Counted from the stretch's first letter, positions 7,094 through 50,214 are shown. The stretch: DNA of 64,000 nt from Patescibacteria group bacterium (GCA_028868715.1 JAGWUB010000001.1:247206-311205), one strand, 5' to 3'. Numbers and translations: made by a program. The notes: a model not told the origin generated them from the sequence alone.

Positions 7094-7100
7094 AATAGTT

Positions 7101-8321
7101 ATGAAAACAAAAAAGAAAAAAATAAATAAAAAGCCAAAAGGAAAGGTTTTAAAGAAAAAGAAAAAAGTGGCAAAAATCAAGAAAAAGCCTACCAAAAAGC
7201 TTTTAAAGAAAAAAGCCGTAAAGAAACTTCCAAAAAAAATTAGTAAGGGAGAACTAAAAGAACAAAAACTCAACCGCCTTTCGGATGAATTGATAGAAAA
7301 AGGACGCAAACGAGGATTCATAACTTACGATGAGATACTAAAGATTTTTCCAGATATTGAAAACAATATATTCTTTTTAGATGAACTTTATGAGAAATTT
7401 GCTCGAGCCTCTATTGATGTCTTAGAAGGTGGAAACTTACTCGACCTAGATGTTGATCTGACTGACAAGGACCTAAACAAGGGCTCAATGCACGACTCCA
7501 TTCAGATGTATTTGAAGGAAATAGGCCAATACCCACTTATCCGCGCTGGTGAAGAAAAAGATTTGGCTAAACGCATAGAACACGGTGACTTGGAGGCTAA
7601 AAATTTATTAGCCAGAGCTAACCTGCGTTTAGTCGTCTCAATTGCCAAAAAATACGTAGGCAGAAGTGCTAATCTAAACTTGCTTGATTTGATTCAAGAA
7701 GGAAACTTGGGATTATTTAAAGCAGTAGAAAAATTTGATTGGACTAAAGGCTATAAATTTTCAACTTATGCGACATGGTGGATTCGTCAGTCTATAACTC
7801 GTGCTTTAGCAGACCAGAGCCGAACTATCCGCATACCAGTGCACATGGTAGAGACAATTTCTAAATACAAACAAGTGATGAGGAGACTTAGTCAAGATTT
7901 AGGCAGGGAACCACTGGCTGAAGAAATTGCTACCGAGATGGATATTCCCGTAGAAAAAATTCACGTAATTGAAAAAATTAGTCAGGACACTATCTCGCTG
8001 GAGCAACCAATCGGAGACGATGACGATAAATCAACTTTAGAAAACTTTATTCCAGATGATAAAATTTTGCGCCCTGATCAAGAATCTTCTCGTCGAATTC
8101 TTTCTGATCAAATTCGTGAAGTATTAGACGAGCTTAATCCCAAAGAACGCAAAATACTTGAAATGCGCTACGGGCTCCTAGATGGCATTCAACATACTCT
8201 AGAGCGAGTAGGGGAAGAATTTGGTGTGACCCGCGAACGCATTCGTCAGATTGAAGCCAAGGTGCATGAAAAACTCCGTCAGCACGATAAAATCTCTCGT
8301 TTGAAGAATTACTTTGACTAA
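7101..8321 (+). CDS. rpoD: RNA polymerase primary sigma-70 factor with a lysine-rich N-terminal tail
   Basis: Region 2 reads [40 protein letters not shown]. Region 4 reads [10 protein letters not shown]...[20 protein letters not shown]. The N-terminus is a KKKP-rich repeat. Confidence 0.92.
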
Positions 8322-11488: not shown

Positions 11489-11564
11489 TGGAGCCGGAAG
11501 AGGGATTCGAACCCACGACCTTCGCTTTACAAAAGCGTTGCTCTACCAACTGAGCTATTCCGGC
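11489..11564 (-). tRNA. tRNA, probably tRNA-Thr (anticodon UGU)
   Basis: The minus-strand cloverleaf has acceptor GCCGGAA/TTCCGGC, a GTTCGAATC T-loop, anticodon loop TTTGTAA and an encoded CCA. Confidence 0.8.
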
Positions 11565-20229: not shown

Positions 20230-20526
20230 AGCCTTGTGTTAGATAGCTACTCTTCGATTTATATCGGAGAGAGGAAAGTCCGAACACATAGCCCTTTGGG
20301 TTAAACGTAGCGGGTAATTCCCGTCGTCCGCAAGGATAGAGGTGCGAACAGAGACGAGCTCCTTTAGTGGAGGTGAAACGGCAAAATCCTTACGCGTGTG
20401 CAAGATCGTGCTCCGACCTCGGTCGGAGAGAATCGCTTGAGTCCTGTAGTAATGCAGGACCTAGACAAATTGCTATCGCTCCGACCTCGGTCGGGGTCAC
20501 AAAATTCGGCTTATAGACACAAGGCT
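20230..20526 (+). ncRNA. rnpB: RNase P RNA (bacterial type, compact)
   Basis: P4 strands GAGAGGAAAGTCCGAACAC and ACAAAATTCGGCTTATA. A GGTGAAACGG motif. The P1 helix closes as AGCCTTGTGT...ACACAAGGCT. Confidence 0.85.
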
Positions 20527-20534
20527 AAAACATG

Positions 20535-21614: not shown

Positions 21615-21688
21615 GGGCCCTTAGCTCATCTGGCTAGAGCGCCTCATTTGCAATGAGGAGGTGGCAGGTTCGAGTCCTGTAGGGTCCA
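21615..21688 (+). tRNA. tRNA-Ala (anticodon UGC)
   Basis: Cloverleaf with acceptor GGGCCCT/AGGGTCC including the G3:U70 Ala identity pair. Anticodon loop TTTGCAA. Confidence 0.88.
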
Positions 21689-21708: not shown

Positions 21709-21783
21709 TCCGGGGTAGCTCAGCGGTAGAGCGGTCGCCTGTTAAGCGATTGGTCGTAGGTTCGATCCCTACCCCCGGAGCCA
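21709..21783 (+). tRNA. tRNA-Asn (anticodon GUU)
   Basis: Cloverleaf with acceptor TCCGGGG/CCCCGGA, anticodon loop CTGTTAA, T-loop TTCGATC and an encoded CCA. Confidence 0.88.
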
Positions 21784-21876: not shown

Positions 21877-22935
21877 CTAGTGTATTGTGCTGAAACTCTG
21901 AATATTGCTATTTATTATGGAGTTAGTAGAATCTTTTGATATTACTTTATAATAGTATTTTGTTGCAATATTTAAATTTGAAAGGTTTACAATATGGCTT
22001 GTGGTAGCACTTAGGCCATTTACAGTGGTCGTATTACCTGTAGGTAGACTTACGTCCGTTGAGTAATCAACCTCGCTTGTGGAAGCCACATTAGTTGTCC
22101 AAATAACAGTTGCAGATTTTTGAGCAATGTTCGTAACCCCAACGTTAGATATGGCAAGCTTTGGCGCTAGTGGCGTAGAGGTTGTACTTGGTAAAGGCAA
22201 GGATTGTATCCCAGAAGATTGGCTTTGCAAATCAACTATCTGTGATTGTACTGTCGCTATGTCGGAATATAACTGCGATATCTGATTTTGTATATCTGTT
22301 GTGTTTGTTGGAATGCCATTAGTGTCTGTTTGCGAAGTTTGATTCTGCAAATCTGGAATAGAGGAAATATCTATAGGCTCAAATGTAGTTGTAGCATTTT
22401 CCTGGTCAAGCTCAATCATTGACTCGTAAAATTTTTCTCTCGTAGTCGAATCAAAAACACCAGTTTCAGTTAACCCTGACTGTGATTGAAATTGCTTCAC
22501 CACTGTCTTTGTTACGGTATCGTATAATCCTGTAACTTTATCTAAAGTAACAGTATCAGAGGAATAAATATCTGGGAATTGAATTAACAATTCTTGAAGC
22601 TTGCTAACATCATCTCCCTTGTCTCCTAACTTTAGGTTTCTTTTAAAAATATTTCTCAAATTTATAATTTCAATCTGGGAACTTAAGTCAGCCAGTTGAG
22701 TATTCTCCGACTGAATCTGATTTTCAAGCTGTCCCAACGCATCTGCAATCGTAAGTGTTTGAGCGGTTCCCTTACTAGTATTATTTGCCGTGGAATCTGC
22801 TCCTTGTATGCCAATTGCACTCAAAGAATCACTAATGAAGCCTGAAAAGTTGCCGATTTTTTTAACCACTACAAAAAAAGTTATTACGAATATAATACAA
22901 ACTAGTGATACACCAAATATAGCCTTCCTTTTCAT
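21877..22935 (-). CDS. membrane-anchored surface protein with a peptidoglycan-binding (PG_binding_1-like) domain, a Ser/Thr/Gln-rich linker and a C-terminal FN3-like domain
   Basis: It has an N-terminal TM helix. The PG-binding pattern is LKLGDKGDDVSKLQELL...TVVKQFQSQSGLTETGVFD. The C-terminus is beta-rich. Confidence 0.55.
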   Translation of the reverse strand: MKRKAIFGVSLVCIIFVITFFVVVKKIGNFSGFISDSLSAIGIQGADSTANNTSKGTAQTLTIADALGQLENQIQSENTQLADLSSQIEIINLRNIFKRNLKLGDKGDDVSKLQELLIQFPDIYSSDTVTLDKVTGLYDTVTKTVVKQFQSQSGLTETGVFDSTTREKFYESMIELDQENATTTFEPIDISSIPDLQNQTSQTDTNGIPTNTTDIQNQISQLYSDIATVQSQIVDLQSQSSGIQSLPLPSTTSTPLAPKLAISNVGVTNIAQKSATVIWTTNVASTSEVDYSTDVSLPTGNTTTVNGLSATTSHIVNLSNLNIATKYYYKVISKDSTNSIINSNIQSFSTIH

Positions 22936-27463: not shown

Positions 27464-28021
27464 ATGGAGAAGACTAAAGATATAGATAAAAATATCCTAA
27501 TTCGAGCCAAGACTGGAGACTTGGAAGCTTTCGAGTATATATTGTCTTTTTATGAAAAGGCCATATATAACTATTGTTTGCGGATGATAAAAAATTCTCA
27601 GAATGCAAAAGACATAACTCAAGAAACTTTTATAAAAGTATACACTCATCGTAAAGAAATAGATCCAGAAAAAAATATTAAAACTTGGATATTTACTATC
27701 GCCACAAATACCACGTATGATTTTATTAGAAGTAAAAAAAGAAAACGAGAAACGAGTTTGGATGAAAAAACTGAGAGGAATGAAACAATACCCAATCTCG
27801 AAGCGTATTACCCGAGAGAGGGACTTGTTTCTGATGTCGAGAGGGCTTTGGAGCAAATTAATCCCAAATACGGGGAAGCCCTTATCTTGTTTTATCAACA
27901 GGGTTTTGAATACAAGGAAATAGCCGAGATACTTAATATTCCCATCAATACAATCAAAACGCACATTAGCAGGGGCAAGGATCAATTAAAAGATATACTT
28001 AAAGAATATGGAAAAGATTGA
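27464..28021 (+). CDS. ECF-family sigma-70 factor
   Basis: Region 2 (DITQETFIKVYTH) and region 4 (ALILFYQQGFEYKEIAEILNIPINTIKTHISRGKDQLK). Confidence 0.85.
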   Translation: MEKTKDIDKNILIRAKTGDLEAFEYILSFYEKAIYNYCLRMIKNSQNAKDITQETFIKVYTHRKEIDPEKNIKTWIFTIATNTTYDFIRSKKRKRETSLDEKTERNETIPNLEAYYPREGLVSDVERALEQINPKYGEALILFYQQGFEYKEIAEILNIPINTIKTHISRGKDQLKDILKEYGKD

Positions 28022-28376
28022 CGAACAATTAAATAATCTTTCTTCAATGGAAGTTCCAGACAAGGTACATAACTCTGTGATGCAGAGAATTCACAATAGT
28101 CGCTTGCTACCAATGCTATTTATCATCTTTACTATTCTTGTACTCAGTCTTTTGATAAATATTTTTTATATAAACTCTAAATTAATAGATGTTGAGTTTG
28201 TTGACATGATGCGAGATTTTCTTGATGTCTTTAGTTTTAGTTTTGCTTTTATAAATGTAATGCTGGTAAGTTTTTTTGAAATAATCTCTCCGATGTTTGT
28301 CTTGTTTGCAGTCTTTTGTTTTATAGCGGCAATATATGTTATAAATAAAATTCGATTGTATCGACTTCCTAAATAA
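28008..28376 (+). CDS. putative membrane anti-sigma factor
   Basis: It overlaps the sigma gene stop by 14 nt. It is a small protein with TM helices. Confidence 0.5.
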   Translation: MEKIDEQLNNLSSMEVPDKVHNSVMQRIHNSRLLPMLFIIFTILVLSLLINIFYINSKLIDVEFVDMMRDFLDVFSFSFAFINVMLVSFFEIISPMFVLFAVFCFIAAIYVINKIRLYRLPK

Positions 28377-29066: not shown

Positions 29067-29582
29067 ATGCAAAAAGAGGTTATAAATAACGACAAAGTTC
29101 TATCTGAACAAAAGATAGAACACGAATTGTTTGATATTGGTATTTTACTTAAAGGTATTCATGCGCTCATAGAAATTATTGGTGGCGCGTTTACTTTTTT
29201 GATAAGCCCCCATTTTGTCTTGCGGATCGTTACCAAGATTACCCAAGGAGAACTTTTTGAAGATCCTAATGATTTTTTGACACGATATTTTGTTGACTTT
29301 GCTCACAGTATTTCGGTTGGCACCAAGCAATTTATCGCATTCTACTTACTTTCACACGGAATTACTAACTTGATCTTAGTGATAGGTCTTTTTAAAAAAA
29401 AGATTTGGGCGTATCATGCTTCATTTGTTGTGCTCACACTTTTTGCCCTTTATCAAATATACAGGTATATTTATCACCCCAGTATTTGGATGATTATATT
29501 AACTATCTTTGACTTCATAGTTCTATGGTTGATCTGGAGAGAGTATGAAAGAATAAAGGGTAAGTGGAAACCAATAATCTAG
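29067..29582 (+). CDS. DUF2127-like membrane protein
   Basis: Four TM helices. The C-terminus reads FDFIVLWLIWREYER. Confidence 0.5.
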   Translation: MQKEVINNDKVLSEQKIEHELFDIGILLKGIHALIEIIGGAFTFLISPHFVLRIVTKITQGELFEDPNDFLTRYFVDFAHSISVGTKQFIAFYLLSHGITNLILVIGLFKKKIWAYHASFVVLTLFALYQIYRYIYHPSIWMIILTIFDFIVLWLIWREYERIKGKWKPII

Positions 29583-30089: not shown

Positions 30090-30512
30090 ATGGCAAACAA
30101 AGGCCCAAAATACAACCTCGAAGAATTACTGCTCCTTTTTAAAAGGAGTATTCGAGATATAATTAAAAAGGAAGGATTTAAAGATGATCTTACCTTTTCG
30201 CAAGTAGAAGTTTTACGTTTTGTTGGTCTTTCTGGGAAAAGGACAATGAAGAACATCGCTGACTATTTAAAAATTACTCCACCGTCAGCCAGCCAAATAA
30301 TTTCTGAAATGGAAAAGAAAAACTTGATCAAAAGAAAAAGTGACGAAAATGACCGCAGAGTTGTATTTATCATTTTATCCGATAAGGCCAAAAAACTTTT
30401 TACTTCACTATCCGACCACAAAGATGCTGTTTTTGAAAAAATGATTTCAAAATTAAATGGTTCGGATCGAAAAACCCTTGAACGTATTATTAGAATTCTT
30501 ATTACAGAATAA
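30090..30512 (+). CDS. MarR-family transcriptional regulator
   Basis: Winged helix motif SQVEVLRFVGLSGKRTMKNIADYLKITPPSASQIISEMEKKNLIKRKSDENDRRVV. Confidence 0.85.
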   Translation: MANKGPKYNLEELLLLFKRSIRDIIKKEGFKDDLTFSQVEVLRFVGLSGKRTMKNIADYLKITPPSASQIISEMEKKNLIKRKSDENDRRVVFIILSDKAKKLFTSLSDHKDAVFEKMISKLNGSDRKTLERIIRILITE

Positions 30513-30552
30513 TTCCAGTAGTAGAATAAGTTCACTACAGGACAAACAATTT

Positions 30553-31641
30553 ATGAAACAACACATTAAAACTTTACATCATCATCCTAAACGAGTAATT
30601 ATTATTTCTTTGACAATTGCTCTTATTATAGGATTTTTAGGCTACTTGGCAATAAGTAAAAGTCGAAATTTTACTCCAAGTGATAACAGTGCATTGATAA
30701 ACCCAAACGAAAATTCTCCTTCCGTACGTAACCTTACTCTTGGATTTCTTGCTGCTGGCAGAATTAAATCTGTCTCGGTTAAAGCAGGTGATGTAGTCAA
30801 AAAAGGTCAAGTTCTAGCCACTCTCGACGCCGGAAATGTAGTGGGAGCCCTAGACCAAGCTAAAGCCTCTTATGCCATAGCCCAGGCTAATTATCAAAAA
30901 ATAATTAACGGAGCAACAGGCCCGACCATTGATGTGGCCAAAGCTACCGTGAATACCGCTAAAGTTAGTTTAAATGAAATAACCAAACAACAAGAAGTTT
31001 TAGTGAACAATGCCTATAAGTCTCTCCTTAATTCTTCCATTCAAGCGGTAGCCGTGAGTGATTATGGTGCTATCACTGCTCCAGTGATAACTGGAACTTA
31101 CGACTGTAGCAACGAAGGTGTTTACAACTTAAATACTTACACTTCCTCCAACGGTACTTCTGTATATTACACAGGTCTTGAAACGGGATCAGTATTATCA
31201 ACAAACGCTCCTAAAGCAATTGGAACCTGCGGTTTATTCTTGTCGTATCCTAGTTCAGCCGGAATACTTACACCTGTAGCTCAATTTGTTATTCAAATAC
31301 CAAACAAAAGTGCCGCAAATTATACTAGTAATTTGAACGCCTATCAGCTGGCATTACAGAATAAAGAACAAGCAATTGCCGGAGCACAAGCAACTCTTGA
31401 CCAAGCCAATGCAAATTTAACTTCCATAGTAACTACTGCTCGCCCCGAAGACGTAGCTACGGCTCAAGCTCAAATGGAAAATGCCAACGGAGCACTAAAA
31501 ATCGCACAGGCAGCCTATGACAACACAATTATCGTAGCTCCTGCTGATGGAACTGTGACTTCAGTGGCGATTACTCCCGGACAGATAGCGGTGCCAAATG
31601 CGTCGGCTATAGAATTTATCAGTAATAGTTCTTCAAATTAA
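30553..31641 (+). CDS. membrane-fusion (HlyD-like) protein, N-terminal type: TM helix, lipoyl half and long alpha-hairpin
   Basis: Motifs GRIKSVSVKAGDVVKKGQVLATLD and IVAPADGTVTSV with long coiled-coil segments. I chose the internal ATG at 30553, after the marR stop. Confidence 0.65.
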   Translation: MKQHIKTLHHHPKRVIIISLTIALIIGFLGYLAISKSRNFTPSDNSALINPNENSPSVRNLTLGFLAAGRIKSVSVKAGDVVKKGQVLATLDAGNVVGALDQAKASYAIAQANYQKIINGATGPTIDVAKATVNTAKVSLNEITKQQEVLVNNAYKSLLNSSIQAVAVSDYGAITAPVITGTYDCSNEGVYNLNTYTSSNGTSVYYTGLETGSVLSTNAPKAIGTCGLFLSYPSSAGILTPVAQFVIQIPNKSAANYTSNLNAYQLALQNKEQAIAGAQATLDQANANLTSIVTTARPEDVATAQAQMENANGALKIAQAAYDNTIIVAPADGTVTSVAITPGQIAVPNASAIEFISNSSSN

Positions 31642-31646
31642 AAGTT

Positions 31647-32297
31647 ATGGAAAAAGAAACAAAACAAACTGCAAAAAATGTACACCTTTTTAAAAGGCCT
31701 TGGATGCATAGTCTGATCGCCTTTTTAGTTATCTTTGGATTACTCTCAGTATTTTTGTTTTGGCAGGCAAATCGAAACACAGTTTATATTGAAAATGCAG
31801 ACCTAGAGGCGCCAATCATAAACTTAACTGCTTCTTCACCTGGAGTGTTAAATGCTTTATACGTCAAAGAAGGGGACAATGTGGCAGCTAATACTCAGAT
31901 AGCCTTAGTTGGTTCACAAATTATTTCTACTCAAAATGCTGGAGTGGTAGCTTCAGCGCCAATGTTACTTGGGGCATACTTTATGCCGGGACAAACCGTA
32001 GTATCCATCGTCAACAATCAAGAAATGAAAGTGGTCGGACAAATAGAAGAAACTAAAGGATTGAGTGATTTAAAAGTAGGACAAAAAGCAGCTTTTTCTG
32101 TGGATGCTTTTCCTGGAAGAATGTATGAAGGCCTAGTGTCTGAAATTAGTCCTGTCTCAAATGACAATGGTATTATTTTTTCTATTTCGGATCAACGTCC
32201 AATCAAAAAATTTGATATTAAAGTAAGCTTTAAGGTGGCAGACTATCCTGAGTTAAAGAGTGGTATGTCTGCCAAGATAACAGTTTATACTAAATAA
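31647..32297 (+). CDS. membrane-fusion (HlyD-like) protein, C-terminal type: TM helix, lipoyl, beta-barrel and membrane-proximal domains
   Basis: Motifs GVLNALYVKEGDNVAANTQIALV, VVGQIEETKGLSDLKVGQKAAFSVDAFPGRMYEGLVSEISP. Confidence 0.65.
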   Translation: MEKETKQTAKNVHLFKRPWMHSLIAFLVIFGLLSVFLFWQANRNTVYIENADLEAPIINLTASSPGVLNALYVKEGDNVAANTQIALVGSQIISTQNAGVVASAPMLLGAYFMPGQTVVSIVNNQEMKVVGQIEETKGLSDLKVGQKAAFSVDAFPGRMYEGLVSEISPVSNDNGIIFSISDQRPIKKFDIKVSFKVADYPELKSGMSAKITVYTK

Positions 32298-32302
32298 AAA
32301 AT

Positions 32303-33799
32303 ATGGAAGGGCTCGATGACAAAAAAAAAGGATCCAACCTGCGTTGGTGGATATTACTTACCGTTATAATTGGAACTTTTTTAGGTCGCCTAGATCAAAC
32401 GATAGTGAACTTGGCTCTGCCAAAAATCATTAATGATTTTGGCATTTCGGTTACCGCGGCTGGATGGATAGCTACAGCTTATATTTTAGCTAATGCTGTT
32501 TTCGTGCCGATTTGGGGTAAATTGGGCGATACTATTGGAAGAAAAAAAGTTTACATTATTGGTTTCAGTATTTTTATTTTCGGTTCTGTCTTGGCGGGAC
32601 TTTCATGGAATCTTTCTTCAATGATTGTCTTTCGGGTGATTCAAGCTATAGCCGGATCAGCTGATTATCCGACAGCCATGGCGATATTAGCCGTGACTTT
32701 CAAAAATGGAAAAGAACGTGCGCAAGCACTCGGCATTTGGTCCTCTTCTTTCGCCGCCGCGGCTGTTTTTGGACCACTTTTAGGTGGTCCTTTGATAGAC
32801 AATTTTGGCTGGCGTTCAGTTTTTCTAATCAATCTTCCAATTGGTATTTTAGGTATCATCATGGCCGTTCGTTTTATCAATGAATCACGTTCAGAACAAA
32901 AAACCACATACTTTGATTGGTGGGGATCGCTTTCATTGGGAGGTATGCTTTCTATGTTGGTGCTCGTTTTAGACAAAGGATTAACTTGGGGTTGGTTTTC
33001 AACCGCAAGTCTAATATGTTACTTTTTGATAATTTTCCTCTTGTGGTTATTTATCAGAATAGAAAAAAATGCCAAAGACCCGATTGTGGATTTGCGTTTT
33101 TTCAAAATTCCTGCTTTTGTCAATACTCTGATTAATAACTTTATTGTTTTTATGGGTATGATTGGCGGAATTTTCTTGATACCTATATTTGCGCAAACGT
33201 TTCTCGGGTATACCGCTACTCAATCAGGATATCTTTTTATTCCGATGGCTGCAGCCTTGATGCTAGCAGCTCCAATAGGAGGCGCACTGACTGGGCGAGT
33301 CCAAGCGCGCTACGTGATTTTTGCCAGTACCTTGGTGGCAGCCATCGGTATTTATTTCTTCTCCTTTCTTGATCCCAAGTCCGGTGCTCTGGCTATAATA
33401 ATTCCGCTTTCGGTCATGGCTTTTGGTCTTGGTTTTGGAATGGCGCAACGAACGAATGTTATTGCTTCCGTAGTAAACCCAAATGAAATCGGCATTGCTT
33501 CTTCAATTTTGGCCCTAGCTCGCAATATTGCTGGCGCTTTTGGAATTGCTATTTTTGGAACAATTTTAACAAACCGAGTTTATACAAACGTAATGTCTAT
33601 AAACAATTTTAGCGTTATTCGTAGTACCAATCCGATTGATATAAGTAAATACGTTGGACTAGTAGAACTAAAAGCTCAAGTCAATGCTTACAACTATGTT
33701 TTTTTGGTTGCATCCATTATAGTTTTTGTCGGAGCCTTTGCGGTGCTCTTTATGAAAATTAAACATGAACGCACGGATATAACTGTGCACGTAGAGTAA
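32303..33799 (+). CDS. MFS drug:H+ antiporter, DHA2 (EmrB/QacA-like, 14 TM helices)
   Basis: Motifs LPKIINDFGISVTAAGWIATAYILANAVFVPIWGKLGDTIGRKKVYIIG and VFRVIQAIAG. 498 aa. Confidence 0.85.
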   Translation: MEGLDDKKKGSNLRWWILLTVIIGTFLGRLDQTIVNLALPKIINDFGISVTAAGWIATAYILANAVFVPIWGKLGDTIGRKKVYIIGFSIFIFGSVLAGLSWNLSSMIVFRVIQAIAGSADYPTAMAILAVTFKNGKERAQALGIWSSSFAAAAVFGPLLGGPLIDNFGWRSVFLINLPIGILGIIMAVRFINESRSEQKTTYFDWWGSLSLGGMLSMLVLVLDKGLTWGWFSTASLICYFLIIFLLWLFIRIEKNAKDPIVDLRFFKIPAFVNTLINNFIVFMGMIGGIFLIPIFAQTFLGYTATQSGYLFIPMAAALMLAAPIGGALTGRVQARYVIFASTLVAAIGIYFFSFLDPKSGALAIIIPLSVMAFGLGFGMAQRTNVIASVVNPNEIGIASSILALARNIAGAFGIAIFGTILTNRVYTNVMSINNFSVIRSTNPIDISKYVGLVELKAQVNAYNYVFLVASIIVFVGAFAVLFMKIKHERTDITVHVE

Positions 33800-33817: not shown

Positions 33818-35356
33818 CTAGGCGAAGCCAGGGAAGAAATCAATCTTTATATTTTTTCTTTTTACTCCCATAGACCTGAGTGTGTCTTCAAACGCAGTAA
33901 CCATACCACGTGGTCCCGAAATATAAAAAGTTTTATTAAGATAATCAGAAACTTCTCTTTGGATAATTCGTGCATCAACAAAGCCATTGTACATAAAGCT
34001 GCCAACGGGCACCTCGCCCTTATCAGTGACGGCATAAATAGTTTTTATGCCGAGTTCTTTTTGGGCTTTATCAAATACCTCTTTATAGGCTATGTCGGAA
34101 ACTTTTTTATTTGAATAAAGTAAGGTAATATCTCTTTTTTCATTATTATCCAATAAATATTGGATCATACTTCGGAAAGGCGTGATGCCGATACCGCCGG
34201 CGATAAATACCAACCCTCTCTTTTCAGTTGTTGGCAAGACAAAGTCTCCAGACTTTTGAGCAACGACTATTTCTCCCAATTTTGGTAATGCCAATAATCT
34301 ATTTTTAAAACTACTCGGCTCAGGATAGAATTTTACTCCTAGATGTATTTCCGGTTCTGTGGGCGATGAAGCTAAAGTAAAGTAACGACGATTACCACGC
34401 GTATCGGGGCTACGATGCTTGAGTGTCCATTCCATATATTGCCCAGGTCTAAAATTAAACTTTTTATCTTTGTAAAAAATAAAATCAAATGTATCTGTAC
34501 CTACTTTTACACGTTCTTTCAACTTTAGAAAAAGTTTTTCCTTTGGACTGACGATATAGGCAAAAATGTTTCCCACCACCAAAGCCAGTTCTGGCGTAGA
34601 ATAAAATGGCCCGATTTGTAGTGCTGGGGCAGACAAAATACCCACCAATACACCAAAAGCCATACGCCACCACCTAGTGGTGGGAGAGGTGAGTGGTTCC
34701 GTTAACATCACAAAAGCAAAGAAAAGTATGGCTGTATTGTCTAGGGTTGATATCAAAGTATGGACAATATTTTGGGCACTCGCTCCTTTTTGTGCTGACA
34801 AGATGATAATTGTGGTTATTACAGAAATTAAGAAACTAAAAAACAAATCCCAATGACGAAGTTTTCTTATAATTAAAAATCCACCTATAATCACGACAGG
34901 CAACATTGCCGGCGTTCCGATCCACCAACTAGCGGATTGATTTATGGTGAAGGCCACTAGAACAAGAGCAATCGCCGCAGGGTTAAAAATATGTTTTCTC
35001 CCAATTGCAAAAATATACTTTGAAGCCATCGCCCATACGCTAGCCCAAAATGCTAGTGGTAAAAACTGTGAGTACACACCACCTTGAGCGGGGGTGATAA
35101 TAAAAAACAAAATTAAAGCCGTTATATAAATAGATTCTACGTTGGTCGGAGCTTCATAGACATAAGCAAAGATAATATTGGTTATGTAAGATACCAATAA
35201 AATAATCAAAAAAGATGCCATTAGATCAATGGGTGTATACGGTAAAAACTTGAAGATTGATAGAACCACAGCGGAACCCAAAAAGAAACACAGAACATAA
35301 AGAACTATGCGATACATCGTTATTCTATTTAGAAAATTGTCTATGAAATTAAGCAT
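33818..35356 (-). CDS. polytopic membrane protein (about 270 aa, 7-8 TM helices) fused to a cytoplasmic ferredoxin-NADP reductase-like FAD/NAD(P)-binding domain
   Basis: FAD site RRYFTLASSP (RxYS/T). NAD site GGIGITPFRS (GxGxxP). The C-terminal motif is YISGPRGM. The hydrophobic N-terminal half contains HIFNPAAIALVL. Confidence 0.7.
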   Translation of the reverse strand: MLNFIDNFLNRITMYRIVLYVLCFFLGSAVVLSIFKFLPYTPIDLMASFLIILLVSYITNIIFAYVYEAPTNVESIYITALILFFIITPAQGGVYSQFLPLAFWASVWAMASKYIFAIGRKHIFNPAAIALVLVAFTINQSASWWIGTPAMLPVVIIGGFLIIRKLRHWDLFFSFLISVITTIIILSAQKGASAQNIVHTLISTLDNTAILFFAFVMLTEPLTSPTTRWWRMAFGVLVGILSAPALQIGPFYSTPELALVVGNIFAYIVSPKEKLFLKLKERVKVGTDTFDFIFYKDKKFNFRPGQYMEWTLKHRSPDTRGNRRYFTLASSPTEPEIHLGVKFYPEPSSFKNRLLALPKLGEIVVAQKSGDFVLPTTEKRGLVFIAGGIGITPFRSMIQYLLDNNEKRDITLLYSNKKVSDIAYKEVFDKAQKELGIKTIYAVTDKGEVPVGSFMYNGFVDARIIQREVSDYLNKTFYISGPRGMVTAFEDTLRSMGVKRKNIKIDFFPGFA

Positions 35357-35358
35357 TT

Positions 35359-36109
35359 TTATATCTTTGTGTAATTATTAAAACCCTTGGTCATTGTGGC
35401 TATACCATTTTTATCAATTGAGTATCCCTCAAATCCACTCAATTTTTCTATGAAAAATATACCATTTTTACCCATAGCAAAAGCTGCGGTCGCATATTTG
35501 TCAGCTTCCAGAATATTTGGTCCGACAACCGTTATACTTACTATGTCCTTTAAATGATCATTTTTATCCTTGGGATTGTATACGTGTTCTCCGCGAATAT
35601 AGTTGCCAGAGGTGGCTATACCATTATCAGTTAAATAAACTTTTTTTTACAACCTCTCTTTTTTTATTAAAGGGGTTTTGAATGCCAATGCACCATGGTT
35701 CATTTTTATCATTTTTACCGCATGCTTGGATGTCTCCTCCTGCTTCTACATAAAAATTTTTAATACCATGACCCTTTAAAATATTACTGGCATTAAAAAT
35801 AGACCAACCTTTTACCATCCCCGAAGGATCATAAGCTCCTGTTGGGGTAACAATATCAAAATACCCATCTGTTAATTCTTTAGTTTCCTCTGAAAGCCTA
35901 AAGACTGTTTTCATATCCTCGCTCCAGTCTCTCTCATTTATTTTTTTATTGTTAATTGCCGTAATCTCACTATCTTCTTTATAGGTGCTGAATTTTTCAT
36001 CTACATATTTAAAATAATTAAAAACCTCATCAAAAAACTCCTGTTTTGCCTCGGAGTCCCTAACCTCAAGAATAACGGGTGTACCCATAATGATTTGAAC
36101 CTGCTTCAT
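35359..36109 (-). pseudogene. apbE: ApbE-family FAD:protein FMN transferase, interrupted by a +1 frameshift at an A8 homopolymer
   Basis: The N-terminal ORF 35627-36109 (MGTPVILEV...AGGDIQACG) is ApbE-like. The downstream region 35359-35640 encodes the ApbE C-terminus (SITVVGPNILEADKYATAAFAMGKNG) in the -1 frame. The frames meet at the T8 tract at 35641-35648 on the plus strand. Confidence 0.75.
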
Positions 36110-36115
36110 TTTTAT

Positions 36116-36619
36116 TTAATTTAATGCTTGCGAGAGAGCACTTGCTAAAGACTCACGAAATGCGGCACTCGTGAATGATGCTCCAGAAACAGTGTCTACG
36201 TTAGAACCTTGCGCAGTAATAGCCTCACTGATTAGGTATGGCATTGCGAATGAATTTATGCGAATTGAATTCTGTCTATCTTGTGGGTAGTCTAAAAATT
36301 GTACATCGGTGATTTTGCCACCAGAAATTATAGCTTTGACTTGCACATTGCCATAGGTCGCATCTGCCACACTACCGGTATAACTTCCGTTTTTATACTT
36401 TCCAGTATTTGCGATAGGTGTCTGTGTTGGTTTTGGTTTTGTAGAAGTGGGGGATTTTGTTGTCGTTGTATTATTGTATTGTGGGAGCGATAAGGTAACG
36501 TTTGGCTTGTTGGGCTCAGGTGCCAAGGTAACTGGAGCTTCCGTTCCAATGATACGTACATATAATACATATGCCGTAAACGTGAATATTAACAATAAGG
36601 ATAAGGCCGCTTTTTTCAT
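36116..36619 (-). CDS. exported FMN-binding domain protein (ApbE flavinylation substrate; NqrC/RnfG-like FMN_bind)
   Basis: N-terminal signal or anchor, a Thr/Pro-rich linker, then the FMN_bind pattern GSYTGSVADATYGNVQVKAIISGGKITDVQF...AQGSNVDTVSGASFTSAAF. DTVSGAS matches the Dxx(s/t)gA(s/t) flavinylation motif. Confidence 0.75.
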   Translation of the reverse strand: MKKAALSLLLIFTFTAYVLYVRIIGTEAPVTLAPEPNKPNVTLSLPQYNNTTTTKSPTSTKPKPTQTPIANTGKYKNGSYTGSVADATYGNVQVKAIISGGKITDVQFLDYPQDRQNSIRINSFAMPYLISEAITAQGSNVDTVSGASFTSAAFRESLASALSQALN

Positions 36620-36665
36620 AAGTTTTATTATATCACATACCCAATAATGAAATTGGGCCTAATTT

Positions 36666-37844
36666 TTAATCTTCTACGTGAAAATCTGAGTTATCAGATG
36701 ATGACCTAGGGGATTCTATGCCAGGTGTAGTTTGATGGTTTTCATTTTCCAATAGATTATCATCTTCAATATCTCCTCCATTATCAACACCCATATCATC
36801 TTCAATTTCTCCTTTTATTACATTAGATAGCATCAATAATTTTATTGAATTAACGTCAGTTATGACTAGTTGAAATCTATTAATTGCATTTGCGTAATCA
36901 CTGGAAGTCATAAATGTTTTACCTTCCTGTAAAGAAGTTTCTGCTAGCGCAAGCTTGCTATCAATCTGAGTTTGTATATTTGTTGAAAGTTTTAATTTTT
37001 CTTTTTGGTACGAAAGTTTTATTAAATTTAATAAATTTTCTGCCGCAGTTTGTTTACCAAGCGCAGAAGCAGAATCTGGTGTCGTTGATGTAGCAGAGCT
37101 ATCTCCTTCATTTACCCCAAGGTTTAAATCAAACTTTGCTTGGCCGTCCATCTCTTTATTCTTAGACTCCTCTAGGGTAGAAACCAATTTGTCAGTTTCA
37201 TTTTTAGTTTCTGTGTTAGTATTCGACTGCTCTGAAAGATTTTTTAATACATCTTGATAAGCCCTAAGAGAAGCCTGCAATCTTATATTTAAATCAGAAG
37301 AATTTCTAGATTTATCTTTTTCCAAAGCAAGCTCATTTGCGCTTGTGTTAAATTCATCAATCTGACTTTTTATTTTAGTTTCCAAAATAACTCTTTTGGA
37401 TTCGTCAAAATTATTTCTAGCAACAAGCTTTTGGGCTTCTTTGAGCCTACGTTCCACCAGTCTTTCTCGCCATTCTGTTTTTTCTTCTTTTGTTAAAGCA
37501 AATATACCAGCGACTGGTTCATTCACGGATGTTTTTATTCCGTAAAGTAGATCACCAGGCACAGCCCTTTCTGCAAAAGCAGAAGTACCACCAGTGATAA
37601 TGATAATAAGAATTACGATAAATGCGGGAACAAATTTACTTTTATTATTCATAAAATTGTATTTTTTTATGTTTTGATAATAATAATATATACGACTTGT
37701 ATTTGATTTTACTATATTGTCATGCGTTAAATTTTGAACGGGAGAAACTTTATCGAGCAAATTAGTGCGCATTAATGCCTTCTCACTTTCAGTGAGTTTA
37801 ATATTTTTTACCGCCTTAATTATAGATTCAAATTCTTTATCCAT
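36666..37844 (-). CDS. putative anti-sigma factor (single TM helix, extracytoplasmic coiled-coil, acidic C-terminus)
   Basis: It overlaps the ECF sigma stop by 8 nt. TM helix FVPAFIVILIIIITGG. The remainder is long, helical and low-complexity. Confidence 0.5.
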   Translation of the reverse strand: MDKEFESIIKAVKNIKLTESEKALMRTNLLDKVSPVQNLTHDNIVKSNTSRIYYYYQNIKKYNFMNNKSKFVPAFIVILIIIITGGTSAFAERAVPGDLLYGIKTSVNEPVAGIFALTKEEKTEWRERLVERRLKEAQKLVARNNFDESKRVILETKIKSQIDEFNTSANELALEKDKSRNSSDLNIRLQASLRAYQDVLKNLSEQSNTNTETKNETDKLVSTLEESKNKEMDGQAKFDLNLGVNEGDSSATSTTPDSASALGKQTAAENLLNLIKLSYQKEKLKLSTNIQTQIDSKLALAETSLQEGKTFMTSSDYANAINRFQLVITDVNSIKLLMLSNVIKGEIEDDMGVDNGGDIEDDNLLENENHQTTPGIESPRSSSDNSDFHVED

Positions 37845-38355
37845 TTTTATTATCTACATTTTTTAATAATTCTCGAAGTTTTTCTCTTGCTCGGCTTACT
37901 CTTACTGATATTGTATTTTCTCGCTCGTCCAGCAATTCAGCCATATCCTTTGGACTCATATCCTCTACATATCGTAGCACAATAATCTCTCTGTCAGAGG
38001 GTGATAATTTATCCAATAATGAAAGAAAAATTGAATAATCAAGATAAGTTTCCATGTTGTCTTTTGCCGCGATAGATTCAAAAAATCCATCAGGGAGACT
38101 ATTTTCGGTGATACTTTTACTTTTTCTCCAAAAATCAATAACGGTATTTTTTGCAACAGTATAAATAAAACTCTTATGACTGCCTACCTCCTCTTTTTTT
38201 AAATGGTTAAATACTTTTATAAAAACGTCCTGAGCAAGGTCTTTGGCCACCTCTCTATCTCCCGTCTTAAAATAGCAAAAGCGGAAAATAGCATCTCCAT
38301 AGGTGTCATAAAGTTCAATGAACATAGTTCTTTTGTTGTCTTCTTCAGTATCCAT
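37837..38355 (-). CDS. ECF-family sigma-70 factor
   Basis: Region 2 (DLAQDVFIKVFNH) and region 4 (REIIVLRYVEDMSPKDMAELLDERENTISVRVSRAREKLRELL). Confidence 0.85.
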   Translation of the reverse strand: MDTEEDNKRTMFIELYDTYGDAIFRFCYFKTGDREVAKDLAQDVFIKVFNHLKKEEVGSHKSFIYTVAKNTVIDFWRKSKSITENSLPDGFFESIAAKDNMETYLDYSIFLSLLDKLSPSDREIIVLRYVEDMSPKDMAELLDERENTISVRVSRAREKLRELLKNVDNKNG

Positions 38356-38467
38356 AGTTAATTACGATTAGTCACTTGACTTTATTACATTATAATACAT
38401 TTAGCTATTTATGCCTACAGGCTACGCAAAGTAGACAACCAGTCTTGATTTTCATATACTTATACCT

Positions 38468-38932
38468 ATGACATATAACGTTCATCCGATATTTGTTCAC
38501 TTTCCAATTGTTTTGCTTCTGCTTTATTCTATTGTAAAGATATTACCCCTTGATAAATTTTTTCCCAGAGTTTCCTGGAAGCAAATTGAACGTTTTTTAC
38601 TCGTACTAGGATTTTTAGGAGCATTGGCTGCTATTTATACTGGCGGTATTGCTAGACATTTAATCCAGCCAAATCGACAGCTGGTAGGCATGCATTCAAC
38701 TTTCGCTACGGCATCCACTTGGATTTATGGATTTTTATTATTCCTAGAAATTATTGCAATAGTAAAATCAAAGTATGCCAAATTTTCTGATGGATTATTT
38801 TCAAAACTTTTGGCGTTGGTGGGACTCATCAGTATTTCAATCACTGGTCTACTTGGGGGAGTTATCGTTTATGGAGTAACCGCTGATCCTCTCGCGGGCA
38901 TAGTCTTAAAGTTACTTGGAATTAATTTATAA
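38468..38932 (+). CDS. DUF2231-like membrane protein
   Basis: HPIFVHFPIVLLLL...AAIYTGGIARHL. Confidence 0.5.
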   Translation: MTYNVHPIFVHFPIVLLLLYSIVKILPLDKFFPRVSWKQIERFLLVLGFLGALAAIYTGGIARHLIQPNRQLVGMHSTFATASTWIYGFLLFLEIIAIVKSKYAKFSDGLFSKLLALVGLISISITGLLGGVIVYGVTADPLAGIVLKLLGINL

Positions 38933-41748: not shown

Positions 41749-44379
41749 ATGAATTGGTTAAAACACATTTTTGCGAAAAGTAAAAAAGATGATGAGTTAA
41801 CCCAATCTCTCAAAAAAAGTCTTTTTGAAAAATTATATAAATTTGCAAAAAATGACCCAAATTTTTCGTTTAATGAATTAAACTCTAGAGAACAAGGGCT
41901 TGATGATGGGGAAGTACAGAAAAGATTAAAAATCTATGGCTCCAATGATATAGCTGATGAAAAAAAGACTAATCACTTTCTAAAATTGCTTGAAATCATA
42001 AAAAGCCCCTTGAATTTATTACTGTCGGCTCTAGCGCTAGTTTCTCTCTTTGTCGGCGACAAGGAATCCTTTACGGTCATTATAGTCATGGTTCTGTTGA
42101 GTATTTTTTTGAATTTTTACCAAGAAACAAAAGCAGCCATAGCCGCCGATAAACTAAAATCAATAATCCACACCAAGACCACAGTTATTCGGAATAATGT
42201 CAAACAGGAAATTCTTTTGAGAAATGTTGTTCCTGGGGATGTTGTTTATTTGTATTCAGGCACCATTATTCCTGGGGACGTTAGATTAATCTCATCCAAA
42301 GATTTATTTATTAATCAAGCCATGCTTACGGGTGAGTCTTTGCCAGTTGAAAAGCATGTAATAGATTCCAACTTAGACGAAAAAGGAGTAATAGAGTTTT
42401 GTAACTTATGTTTTTTAGGCACCAGCGTTGAGTCTGGAGTAGCTACAGCCCTCGTGTTAAATACCGGGAAGAATACTTATTTAGGAAGTGTGGCTTCTGA
42501 CATTAATAAAAATGACCATGTTTCTGATTTCAATACTGAATTAAAGAAGTTTGTTTTATTGATTTTGAAATTTATGGCCGTTATGGTGCCAGCTGTTTTT
42601 TTATTGAATGGAATTTTCAAAGGGAACTGGTTTGAAGCATTTTTGTTTGCTATTGCGGTAGCTGTCGGAGTTGCCCCAGAGATGATTCCAACCATCGTGG
42701 CTGTAAATTTATCAAAAGGAGCCATGGTTTTATCTAAAAATAAAGTTATCGTCAAACACTTAGATGCCATAGAAAACTTGGGAGTAATGGATATCTTATG
42801 CACCGACAAGACAGGAACACTTACCGAAGGTACGGTTGTTTTAGAAAAGCACTTAGATATTTATGGAAAAGATAGCGTCGAATCCCTACATTACGCATTT
42901 CTCAATAGTTATTTTCAAACTGGCGTAAAAAACATTATAAATGAAGCAATTTTGAAACACGATGAAGCTAAGGAAAAATTGGAAATAAACAATTATGTAA
43001 AAATAGATGAAATTCCGTTTGATTTCAATAGAAGGAAAATGTCTGTCATCGTTTCAGACACCAAAAGCAATAAATCTCTATTGGTTTGCACGGGAGCAGT
43101 AGAGGAAATTATTGCTTCTTGCGAAAGTGTTTTGATTGATGGAAAAATAATTTCCTTAAAAGATTTTACTGATGAGAAAAAAATACTAATTGAAGAAGAA
43201 TTAAACAAAGAAGGTTTTCGAGTGACAGCCGTAGCCTACAAAGAGACTGATTCAGCCAAAAAAGTTTTTTCAACTGACGATGAAGACAAATTGACCCTTG
43301 TCGGCTTTTTAGCCTTTTTTGATCCGCCAAAGCCAAGCGTCATTGAGACTATAAAAGATTTAAAAGAATTGGGCGTAAGTGTAAAAATTTTAACAGGAGA
43401 CAATGAAATAGTAACTAGAAAAATATGTGAAGAAGTTGGTATCGTGGTGGAAAAAATATTACTCGGCAAAGACATTGAAAAATTAAGTGATGAGGAGCTA
43501 AATAAAGAAGTAGAAGAGGTGGTGGTCTATGCCAAGCTGTCTCCATACGACAAAGAAAGAATAATTAAAAGTCTCCGTTCCCAAAATCATGTGGTAGGAT
43601 TTCTAGGTGATGGTATCAATGATTCTCTTTCACTGATCGCCGCTGACGTCGGCATATCGGTCGATACAGCGGCAGACATAGCTAAAGAATCATCTGATTT
43701 GATTTTATTAGAAAAAAGTTTACTGGTTCTCAAAGAAGGAATAAAAGAAGGCAGAAGGATATTTGACAATATAATTAAATACATAAAAATGGCCGCCAGC
43801 TCTAACTTTGGAAATATGTTTAGCGTAGTTGGTGGAAGTATTTTCTTGCCCTTCTTGCCAATGTTGCCGATCCAGATACTTACCAACAACATGCTTTATG
43901 ATTTTTCTCAAATGACCATTCCTACCGACAATGTGGATGAGGAGCGTCTAGTAAAACCTAAAAAATGGGATTTTAAACATATTAAGAGATTTATATTGTT
44001 TTTCGGCCCGATCAGTTCGCTGTTTGACTATGCGACATTTTTTGTAATGATCTTTATATTTCATGCATGGGGTAACCCAGCACTTTTCCACACCGGCTGG
44101 TTTGTGGAATCTCTCCTGACCCAGACTTTTATTGTGCATATTATTAGAACCAGCAAAATCCCATTCTTCCAAAGCTGGGCCAGCTGGCCACTTATAACCT
44201 CTACTTTATGTGTAATTTTAGTGGGGCTTTATTTGCCATTTTCCCCATTTGCCAAAGCCTTTCAATTCTTACCTTTGCCACCGCTTTATTTTGCCCTATT
44301 GTTTATTGGGTTAATATTATACTTCCTGATTACCCAGTTCTTGAAAGTATGGTTTATTAAAAAATATGAGTGGATATAG
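41749..44379 (+). CDS. mgtA: Mg2+-importing P-type ATPase (type IIIB, MgtA/MgtB-like)
   Basis: Motifs CTDKTGTLTEG, TGDN, GDGINDS and ten TM helices. 876 aa. Confidence 0.85.
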   Translation: MNWLKHIFAKSKKDDELTQSLKKSLFEKLYKFAKNDPNFSFNELNSREQGLDDGEVQKRLKIYGSNDIADEKKTNHFLKLLEIIKSPLNLLLSALALVSLFVGDKESFTVIIVMVLLSIFLNFYQETKAAIAADKLKSIIHTKTTVIRNNVKQEILLRNVVPGDVVYLYSGTIIPGDVRLISSKDLFINQAMLTGESLPVEKHVIDSNLDEKGVIEFCNLCFLGTSVESGVATALVLNTGKNTYLGSVASDINKNDHVSDFNTELKKFVLLILKFMAVMVPAVFLLNGIFKGNWFEAFLFAIAVAVGVAPEMIPTIVAVNLSKGAMVLSKNKVIVKHLDAIENLGVMDILCTDKTGTLTEGTVVLEKHLDIYGKDSVESLHYAFLNSYFQTGVKNIINEAILKHDEAKEKLEINNYVKIDEIPFDFNRRKMSVIVSDTKSNKSLLVCTGAVEEIIASCESVLIDGKIISLKDFTDEKKILIEEELNKEGFRVTAVAYKETDSAKKVFSTDDEDKLTLVGFLAFFDPPKPSVIETIKDLKELGVSVKILTGDNEIVTRKICEEVGIVVEKILLGKDIEKLSDEELNKEVEEVVVYAKLSPYDKERIIKSLRSQNHVVGFLGDGINDSLSLIAADVGISVDTAADIAKESSDLILLEKSLLVLKEGIKEGRRIFDNIIKYIKMAASSNFGNMFSVVGGSIFLPFLPMLPIQILTNNMLYDFSQMTIPTDNVDEERLVKPKKWDFKHIKRFILFFGPISSLFDYATFFVMIFIFHAWGNPALFHTGWFVESLLTQTFIVHIIRTSKIPFFQSWASWPLITSTLCVILVGLYLPFSPFAKAFQFLPLPPLYFALLFIGLILYFLITQFLKVWFIKKYEWI

Positions 44380-49174: not shown

Positions 49175-49783
49175 ATGAATGCACCAATTGAATTATTACG
49201 CGTGTTTATTCTGGACCATAGGTCACTGGAATATATCATTATTTTTTTGGGAACAGCCCTGGGAGGGGAACTTGCTCTATTTGCTTTTGGTTTTCTGGCT
49301 GCTCAAAATTTTATTTCGCTTATACCTTTATTCATCTTTGGTTTTTTGGGAACTTTTTTTCCGAATATTTTGTGGTTTTTTATTGGTAAAACAAATACAG
49401 CCAGCCGAGTAATTTTAAATCGTTATGCTGACAATACCACTTCAATGATAACGCAGGCCGTGAGTAATATGAGTAAAGATAATCATTTTACAGCGCTGAT
49501 CATCATTAAATTTATTATAGGAACTCCATTTTTATTGATTATGTATGTGCATAAAACTGGACTATACCTAAAGCAGTTTCTTTACTACGAAACACCAGCA
49601 ATTCTTCTCTCGCTTTTGGTAGTTATTTTGATTGGTTTTATTTCTGGGCTTGGATTTACGATTCTTTCAGATATTTTCAATAATCTATATATAGCCATTG
49701 GGTTTATTCTAATAATTGCAGTAGTTATAATTATGGCTAAATTATGGATCAAAACACAATTTACCAAAAATATTTCAAAGTAA
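49175..49783 (+). CDS. DedA/VTT-domain-like membrane protein
   Basis: LEYIIIFLGTALGGELALFAFGFLAAQNFISLIPLFIFGFLGTFFPNILWFFIGK. Confidence 0.45.
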   Translation: MNAPIELLRVFILDHRSLEYIIIFLGTALGGELALFAFGFLAAQNFISLIPLFIFGFLGTFFPNILWFFIGKTNTASRVILNRYADNTTSMITQAVSNMSKDNHFTALIIIKFIIGTPFLLIMYVHKTGLYLKQFLYYETPAILLSLLVVILIGFISGLGFTILSDIFNNLYIAIGFILIIAVVIIMAKLWIKTQFTKNISK

Positions 49784-49815: not shown

Positions 49816-50214
49816 ATGCGAATAAATTTACAAGGCAAAAATATTGAGTTAACGGAGCCTATCAAAGATTATGTTTTAAAGAGAGTAACTAACTTGGAAA
49901 AATTACTTTCTGGGATTGAAAAAGGGGGAGGGGAAGTAGCAGTCACGTTTGAAGTTGGTAAAAGCACCAAGCATCACAAAGGAACTTCTATTTTTAATGC
50001 TTATTGTTTAATCAATACCAATGGCGAAGAATTTTATTCTAGCGCTGATGAGGAGGATTTATATACCGCGATTGATATAGTTAAAGAAAATCTCTTTAGG
50101 GAAATAAATAAAAACAAAGATCGTAAAAAGACATTGTTTAAACGAGGAGCCATGAGCGTCAAAAAAATGCTCAAAGGTCTTTCCAAGCGAAATCCTTTTA
50201 CTTCTAAGTACTAA
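49816..50214 (+). CDS. hpf: ribosome hibernation-promoting factor / RaiA family
   Basis: MRINLQGKNIELTEPIKDYVLKRVTNLEKLL...EDLYTAIDIVKENLFREINKNKDRKK. Confidence 0.85.
   Translation: MRINLQGKNIELTEPIKDYVLKRVTNLEKLLSGIEKGGGEVAVTFEVGKSTKHHKGTSIFNAYCLINTNGEEFYSSADEEDLYTAIDIVKENLFREINKNKDRKKTLFKRGAMSVKKMLKGLSKRNPFTSKY

Follow-up and report, generated by a model that had tools for sequence, protein, structure and literature searches.

We analysed a 64,000-nucleotide stretch of a metagenome-assembled genome (MAG) deposited at NCBI as 'Patescibacteria group bacterium' (locus tags KGL67_), referred to below as the window. Positions 33818-38355 of its minus strand carry five genes that lie in the same orientation and at tight spacing in the open reading frame (ORF) listing, as a preliminary description of this DNA had stated. 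They encode an extracytoplasmic function (ECF) sigma factor, a putative anti-sigma factor, a flavin mononucleotide (FMN)-binding protein, an ApbE-family flavin transferase whose reading frame is broken, and a membrane reductase. This locus very likely belongs to the published NQR/RNF-like system of flavinylation-associated electron transfer, as a representative from Patescibacteria. Its features are as follows, where FAD is flavin adenine dinucleotide and FNR is ferredoxin-NADP reductase.

38363-38389 (-): ECF-type promoter-like element, TGTAAT-N17-CGTA
37837-38355 (-): ECF-family sigma factor, 172 aa (Pfam Sigma70_r2 and Sigma70_r4_2)
36666-37844 (-): putative anti-sigma factor (DUF5667, one transmembrane helix)
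36620-36665 (-): intergenic region with a putative extended -10 sigma-70-type promoter, TTCAT repeats and a 6-bp hairpin
36116-36619 (-): FMN_bind protein, NqrC/RnfG-like, apparently membrane-anchored, 167 aa (PF04205)
35359-36109 (-): frameshifted gene for an ApbE-family FAD:protein FMN transferase (PF02424 in two frames)
35641-35648 (-): A8 homopolymer, the frameshift site in the ApbE gene
33818-35356 (-): NqrB/RnfD-like domain of ten transmembrane helices (aa 1-272) fused to an FNR-type FAD/NAD(P)H domain (aa 274-508)

Meheust et al. 2021 (PMC8238504) described the NQR/RNF-like system as a flavinylation-associated cluster with a PF03116 and PF00175 protein and reported 127 such clusters, mainly from Actinobacteria and the candidate phyla radiation. 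The 512-aa product of the last gene of the locus joins both domains in one chain, with PF03116 (NQR2_RnfD_RnfE, 38.1 bits against a cut-off of 27.7) at the N-terminus and PF00175 (NAD_binding_1, 59.8 bits) at the C-terminus, as the definition of the system specifies, and the FMN_bind and ApbE genes lie directly upstream of it. The preliminary description had regarded this gene architecture as unknown from any characterised system and as surprising in a reduced-genome organism. Neither view can be kept, since the architecture is that of a system already named (PMC8238504), and its presence in a reduced genome is to be expected from its reported distribution.

Conservation was examined in 16 independent related genomes and in 80 metagenome loci at 35-55% identity, and neighbouring ORFs were clustered over 97 loci. 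The order FMN_bind, ApbE, fusion was invariant in all 16 genomes, and the same triad dominated the 80 metagenome loci, with gene order varying in the most distant members. Unbiased clustering placed ApbE in 68 of the 97 loci and FMN_bind in at least 54, and no other Nqr/Rnf-type subunit or acceptor candidate recurred there. Homologues of RnfA/B/C/E/G or NqrA/D/E did not recur in the 97 loci and were not found among the window neighbours scanned, in agreement with the earlier claim that Nqr/Rnf partner subunits are absent. It had also been foreseen that the membrane domain might prove to be a known NqrB/RnfD subunit with its partners encoded elsewhere; the domain is indeed recognisable as NqrB/RnfD, but the remaining subunits were found neither in the scanned genes of the 64-kb window nor in the 97 related loci. 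The cassette as a whole is conserved in part: the triad is present in 16/16 genomes, whereas the ECF sigma factor is confined to a subclade. Homologues of the fusion protein number in the thousands, the closest of them in Paceibacteria and Nomurabacteria, and its transmembrane domain alone retrieved 373 relatives at E <= 1e-30 among 50%-identity representatives, most of them about 500 aa long.

AlphaFold2 modelling of the fusion from 54 homologues gave a confident structure (predicted local distance difference test, pLDDT, 86; predicted template modelling score, pTM, 0.80) with ten membrane helices followed by a beta-barrel and Rossmann FNR module. Seven to eight helices had been proposed earlier for the N-terminal half and must be replaced by the ten now predicted, while the FNR-type FAD/NAD(P)H domain proposed for the C-terminal part agrees with the NAD_binding_1 match and with the motifs RRYFT (aa 323) and GGIGITP (aa 387). 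The whole 512-aa protein contains a single Cys and therefore no Fe-S site, again as proposed. The indexed gene call for this protein (P0001) begins at Met14 and not at the start of the 512-aa form, which is why a look-up by exact match to the 512-aa form gave no result.

In a profile alignment of the transmembrane half, positions 51-90 of the family corresponded to NqrB 135-173 and position 147 to NqrB 273. Family positions 90-147 consequently span NqrB 173-273, with about 43 residues missing. The missing stretch would include the flavinylated threonine of NqrB, which we take to be Thr236. Judged by this alignment, the loop that bears the covalent FMN in true NqrB/RnfD is lost from the fusion, in agreement with Huang et al. 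2024 (PMC10979944), who described a system of two subunits only, with an NqrB/RnfD-like subunit lacking the flavinylated Thr. Two short motifs were considered as flavinylation sites in the fusion and rejected. The QKGAS loop (aa 189-193), a candidate remnant site, varies across the family, and SASWW (aa 141-145) is conserved, but it coincides with the NqrB loop deletion and some members have Asn at position 143.

Curated NCBIfam subunit models scored the fusion far below their cut-offs: 26.3 bits against 207 (TIGR01946) and 28.2 against 415 (NF002011) for RnfD, 20.3 against 349.9 for NqrB (TIGR01937), whose SGAT loop is deleted here, and 45.1 against 295 for NqrF (TIGR01941), whose N-terminal 2Fe-2S ferredoxin domain is absent. 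By these profile scores the 512-aa protein is a relative of the RnfD, NqrB and NqrF subunits and an orthologue of none. At NCBI the protein (MDE2399679.1) bears the name 'RnfABCDGE type electron transport complex subunit D', an over-annotation given how far it falls short of the rnfD cut-off. Among JGI records, homologues of the fusion are in some cases called 'glycine betaine catabolism B' or 'ferredoxin-NADP reductase'.

The product of the third gene matched FMN_bind at 31.9 bits, above the PF04205 cut-off of 22, and carries the flavinylation motif DTVSGAS at aa 142-148 (window 36176-36196); the earlier assignment of an exported-type FMN_bind protein with a DxxSGAS motif thus passed the profile threshold. 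In its homologues an N-terminal MKK leads into a hydrophobic helix of some 20 aa, followed by a linker rich in Pro and Thr, and 16 of 17 keep D-x-[VI]-SGA[ST]. From this layout the protein looks exported and membrane-anchored. The relative L010 has its FMN_bind gene (6767-7244) broken up into overlapping ORFs of 105 and 62 aa, an apparent frameshift. Three distant loci (L075 4433-5035, L087 4691-5149 and L094 7519-8034) have a different small anchored protein beside the fusion and a signal-less ApbE of 286-298 aa. These small proteins share a C-terminal S-R-V-[SG]-G-[AS]-S-L-T, were missed by the FMN_bind hidden Markov model built from close homologues, and are a probable variant flavinylation target.

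The ApbE gene is not intact. PF02424 matched 35359-36109 at profile positions 1-184 (95.1 bits) and 186-258 (33 bits) of 266 in two different frames, so that the family similarity reported earlier extends over the whole span, but the span is not one ORF. A TGA/TAA follows codon 160, the intact ORF covers only 35627-36109 (160 aa), and the remainder continues in a shifted frame down to 35359. Deletion of one A from the A8 run at 35641-35648 yields a 249-aa ApbE that can be aligned over its full length with 17 intact relatives (246-256 aa). The separation of 2 nt between the ApbE stop and the start of the fusion gene, given in the preliminary description, applies to this repaired frame and not to ApbE as sequenced; the frameshift itself had gone unmentioned. 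The run at this site is A6 or A7 in seven of nine close relatives (GTTGTAAAAAAAGTG in L009, for example), indicating that the window ApbE carries a +1 A insertion, and the remaining two, L002 and L003, have an in-frame A8.

The same A8 allele was found in contigs assembled separately from runs SRR32006837 and SRR32006839. The NCBI proteins of the fusion, FMN_bind, DUF5667 and sigma genes have the consecutive accessions MDE2399679 to MDE2399682, with none for ApbE between fusion and FMN_bind, indicating that NCBI also treats the gene as broken. The rest of the 64-kb window consists of long intact ORFs despite 15 other A/T runs of 8 or more, and the assembly is therefore not generally error-prone. 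With intact ORFs elsewhere and the allele in two runs, sequencing error is an unlikely cause, a homopolymer artefact common to the runs keeping a small residual probability, and we regard the frameshift as real in this population. Past the break, 93 codons are free of stops and align fully with the intact relatives, suggesting that the mutation is recent or tolerated. Given a +1 frameshift in its A-run, flavinylation would be either lost or dependent on low-level slippage.

A further property of this ApbE concerns its location. Its ATG is preceded at 9 nt by an in-frame stop, which precludes an N-terminal extension, confirming the earlier remark that the protein lacks a signal peptide. No signal peptide or lipobox was found on ApbE in the 18 closest and about 50 further loci, including the longer ApbEs (286-298 aa) of distant members, and in 18/18 close and about 50 further homologues the protein has 7 aa ahead of the MG[TM] core. 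Signal-less ApbEs are known and act on cytosolic targets (PMC12052999). The cytosolic ApbE of Klebsiella pneumoniae likewise has no signal peptide (PMC12052999), but its target is a soluble cytoplasmic fumarate reductase, whereas the only candidate substrate in the window is membrane-anchored and looks exported. This localisation mismatch is the most interesting aspect of the locus, and it is family-wide rather than local.

Taken with the published model, the domains found here suggest how the module would work. The cytoplasmic FNR-type domain of the 512-aa protein would oxidise NAD(P)H on bound FAD, and electrons would cross the membrane through one or more non-covalent flavin sites in the NqrB/RnfD-like ten-helix domain. 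They would then reach FMN linked by ApbE to the Ser of DTVSGAS in the FMN_bind protein, which would in turn reduce an extracytoplasmic acceptor not encoded in the cluster. Both PMC8238504 and PMC10979944 propose such a relay from NAD(P)H to extracytosolic FMN, and an AlphaFold-multimer model places the flavin of the NqrC-like subunit beside the non-covalent flavin site of the NqrB-like subunit on the extracytosolic face (PMC10979944). The preliminary description had arrived at the same relay, which runs from NAD(P)H through a membrane FNR fusion to a flavinylated extracytoplasmic FMN_bind protein and lacks Nqr/Rnf partners as well as Fe-S or heme; that mechanistic idea is sound but already published.

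Comparison with known systems places the locus closest to the NQR/RNF-like one, with which it shares the fused NqrB/RnfD-like and PF00175 protein, the adjacent NqrC/RnfG-like FMN_bind protein, ApbE, two structural subunits, the absence of a flavinylated Thr and a proposed one-way flow from NAD(P)H to extracytosolic FMN. It differs from that system as published in the frameshift of its ApbE gene, and the papers do not mention an ECF sigma/anti-sigma pair, a DUF5667 companion or a signal-less ApbE. With the Nqr (NqrA-F) and Rnf (RnfA-E,G) complexes the locus has in common the NqrB/RnfD fold, the FMN_bind SGA[ST] motif, an NqrF-like FAD/NADH domain and dependence on ApbE. In contrast to them, it has two of six subunit types, no 2Fe-2S domain, no NqrD/E or RnfA/E iron site, no covalent-FMN loop and neither a quinone nor a ferredoxin module; electron flow is predicted to be one-way and not semicircular, and no evidence of ion pumping was seen. 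The flavin-based extracellular electron transfer system of Listeria, which Light and colleagues are said to have described in 2018 and which PMC9973259 cites, reportedly comprises PplA, FmnB, Ndh2, EetA/B and DmkA/B. It resembles the locus in its monoderm envelope and in the use of an ApbE-type enzyme to flavinylate an anchored extracytoplasmic FMN_bind protein that passes electrons to outside acceptors. NADH enters there via Ndh2 and a dedicated quinone, whereas here NAD(P)H-FNR and NqrB-like domains are directly fused and quinone genes are absent from the vicinity. In contrast to the signal-less window ApbE, FmnB is secreted as a lipoprotein.

The first two genes of the locus encode a putative regulatory pair. 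The sigma factor contains regions 2 and 4 only and matched the ECF superfamily model TIGR02937 at 89.8 bits (cut-off 42.9), its best subfamily being SigM-like at a score below the subfamily cut-off. Its gene overlaps by 8 nt that of the putative anti-sigma factor, which has a cytoplasmic N-terminus of about 70 aa, a transmembrane helix at aa 72-91, a helical DUF5667 ectodomain and an acidic disordered tail. The ECF sigma factor named previously is recognisable from Sigma70_r2/r4_2, and the overlapping single-pass anti-sigma factor named with it corresponds to a single-helix DUF5667 protein. A sigma gene followed by a long DUF5667 gene lies upstream of the triad in the window and in six of nine close relatives, and L011, L017 and, in a looser arrangement, L073 also have a sigma factor with a small transmembrane protein upstream.

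In the three close relatives without sigma, the DUF5667 protein begins exactly at the transmembrane helix and has no 70-aa N-terminus; across the 10 genomes the N-terminus strictly co-occurs with sigma. This co-variation supports an anti-sigma role for the N-terminus, which may bind sigma; together with the 8-nt gene overlap it is indirect support for such binding. The retention of DUF5667 in sigma-less relatives shows that the ectodomain is a companion of the module in its own right. Its predicted fold is a bundle of long helices, for which a fold search returned generic helical bundles and designed repeats only and gave no functional lead. DUF5667 is not mentioned in the literature searched, and the word 'sigma' occurs in neither flavinylation paper (PMC8238504, PMC10979944). 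The pair of ECF sigma and putative DUF5667 anti-sigma factor of the subclade, its conserved ECF-type promoter, the separate sigma-70-type leaderless promoter of the triad and the signal-less ApbE were not found in those papers.

The close clade has seven sigma genes, all preceded by TGTAAY-N17-CGT[CA] ending 6-7 nt upstream of the ATG (CGTC in the six relatives). The window element at 38363-38389 ends 7 nt before the sigma ATG and is the sole match in 64 kb, where 0.38 would be expected by chance; its distance from the ATG implies a leaderless transcript. TGTAAT-N17-CGTA presumably resembles the promoter consensus of Bacillus SigW, SigX and SigM. ECF sigma factors paired with a single-pass anti-sigma factor are known from Bacillus, as in SigW-RsiW, SigM and SigX. 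The locus shares with these pairs a sigma factor of regions 2 and 4 only, an overlapping, co-transcribed anti-sigma gene with a single transmembrane helix, and a probably autoregulatory TGTAAY-N17-CGTC element. It departs from them in a DUF5667 ectodomain without characterised function, a short cytoplasmic part without zinc motif, sigma scores below every named subfamily cut-off, and cargo genes that appear to have a sigma-70-type promoter of their own.

This second promoter is suggested by an extended -10 element, TGATATAAT, at 36627-36635, followed by 7 nt to the FMN_bind ATG. Of the seven loci with sigma, six (the window and 5/6 relatives) have TATAAT, often as TGnTATAAT, at 6-7 nt ahead of the FMN_bind ATG; in the other, L005, it lies 47 nt upstream. 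There it is followed by a GC-rich hairpin and T-run (GCGTCGCAC...GTGCGATGTTTTT; 6586-6673), which is unique to L005 and may be a 5'-leader attenuator. Control of the module by the ECF factor, as proposed earlier, is thus supported only in part: a conserved ECF-type promoter stands before the sigma gene, but the triad seems to have its own leaderless housekeeping-type promoter and sigma is limited to a subclade, so that ECF control, if any, would be an added layer by read-through. The autoregulatory leaderless promoter of the sigma gene probably adds inducible read-through on top of the constitutive-type sigma-70 promoter of the FMN_bind gene.

The same geometry is common elsewhere in the window. 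Of 63 window genes, 20 have a -10-like hexamer (TATAAT with at most one mismatch) ending 6-8 nt ahead of the start codon, compared with about one gene per other distance bin; examples are 21877-22935 (-), 29067-29582 (+), 41749-44379 (+), 49175-49783 (+) and 49816-50214 (+). No Shine-Dalgarno sequence is visible. This suggests that leaderless transcription is widespread in this Patescibacteria genome.

Several genes surround the module. Downstream, and convergent with the fusion gene (the stops are 18 nt apart), an operon at 30090-33799 (+) encodes a MarR regulator, two HlyD/YknX-like adaptors and a major facilitator superfamily (MFS) transporter. A DUF2231 membrane protein gene (38468-38932, +) diverges from the sigma gene and has a -10-like box of its own at 7 nt from the ATG; it was rejected as a module member, since it stands beside the module in no other locus. 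An 876-aa P-type ATPase (41749-44379, +) with Cation_ATPase_N and Cation_ATPase_C is of the Mg/Ca type and unrelated to the copper ATPases found beside the module in two Lac Pavin Nomurabacteria MAGs (L002/L004, 7534-12451 in L002 coordinates, and L003, 1-3689). The genes directly adjoining the module in those MAGs are for a CopA-like P-type ATPase carrying an HMA domain, for DsbD_2 and for a cupredoxin, and L002 has CsoR as well. A general copper link was considered and rejected, as the set is adjacent in 2 of about 97 loci, with weaker ATPase matches in three more. Further away, 27464-28021 (+) encodes a second ECF-type sigma factor (Sigma70_r2 and r4_2) and overlaps a 122-aa ORF at 28008-28376 (+) without Pfam match; these may be another sigma/anti-sigma pair. 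The window also contains a class A RNase P RNA (20231-20529, +, 122 bits) and tRNA genes at 11492-11564 (-), 21615-21688 (+) and 21709-21780 (+).

Several considerations weigh against assigning to this locus a working NQR/RNF-like relay. No experimental characterisation of such a system was found in the literature searched. Domain identities, the fold, the lost Thr loop, the conserved triad and the lack of further conserved subunits are observations, whereas cofactors, direction of flow, topology and acceptor are what we infer from homology, and topology was judged by the positive-inside rule and homology only. A signal-less ApbE with a target that looks exported does not fit the usual extracytoplasmic route of flavinylation, and with ApbE frameshifted in this organism the relay may be non-functional. 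On the regulatory side, a generic single-sequence scan for promoters and terminators showed no enrichment in the region, and the promoter assignments are therefore based on conservation across loci.

The frameshift allows the reading that the module is decaying, that is, that ApbE has lost its function, the FMN_bind protein is unflavinylated and the relay is inactive or being lost. The break after codon 160, present as the same allele in the MAG and two runs, argues for it, as does the split FMN_bind gene of L010, which indicates that breaks do occur in the cassette. However, the other four genes are intact, the 93 stop-free and alignable codons past the break point to a very recent or tolerated mutation, and an A8 run might permit rescue by transcriptional slippage or +1 re-pairing of tRNA-Lys. 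We consider decay possible, though less than probable. The module might instead be a reductase of Fe(III) or Cu(II) for metal uptake or detoxification and not a general electron outlet. VIT1 iron transporters in 6 of 127 clusters (PMC8238504) and the copper set with CopA-like ATPase, DsbD_2, cupredoxin and CsoR adjoining the module in L002/L004 and L003 would fit this, but only 2 of about 97 loci have that set beside the module, the unbiased clustering brought up no recurrent metal transporter, and the neighbours in the window are an MFS/HlyD efflux operon, the DUF2231 gene and a non-copper P-type ATPase. A dedicated metal reductase is accordingly rather doubtful.

The location of ApbE raises another alternative, in which the FMN_bind protein is flavinylated in the cytoplasm by a cytoplasmic ApbE and then either stays there as part of a cytoplasm-facing module or is exported. 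The signal-less ApbEs of the 18 closest and about 50 further loci, the stop 9 nt upstream in the window and the cytosolic targets of known signal-less ApbEs (PMC12052999) are consistent with it, whereas the layout of the FMN_bind protein (MKK, helix of about 20 aa, Pro/Thr linker) is that of periplasmic NqrC/RnfG and in the AlphaFold-multimer model the NqrC-like domain is docked from the extracytosolic side (PMC10979944); we regard it as unlikely. A broader and equally speculative proposal, to which we attach little weight, is that FMN is attached before Sec export, or that the FMN domain lies on the cytoplasmic face throughout the family, and that the DUF5667 ectodomain senses the redox or flavin state of the relay and feeds back through the ECF sigma factor. 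Were the FMN domain to face the cytoplasm, the published extracytosolic model would be overturned. The NCBI name implies that the 512-aa protein belongs to a canonical Rnf or Nqr complex with its other subunits elsewhere, and in favour of this are the NQR2_RnfD_RnfE match above threshold and the RnfD/NqrB fold. The scores of 26 bits against 207 (rnfD) and 20 against 350 (nqrB), the deleted covalent-FMN loop, the protein's own NAD(P)H domain and the lack of any recurring RnfA/B/C/E/G or NqrA/D/E homologue in the 97 loci or among the scanned window neighbours make such membership extremely improbable.

As a member of the NQR/RNF-like system, the locus is a textbook example of something already catalogued in this bacterial group, and its value is mainly corrective. 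At 373 clusters (50% identity, E <= 1e-30), the family far exceeds the 127 clusters of the original description. The combination of a signal-less ApbE with an anchored target is an inconsistency that the accepted model leaves unaddressed. The ECF sigma/DUF5667 link and the leaderless promoter geometry offer handles on regulation in organisms that are not culturable alone. Since this is essentially the only flavinylation system of the ultra-small fermentative Patescibacteria, it is a candidate route by which they may dispose of reducing equivalents or carry out reduction at the cell surface.

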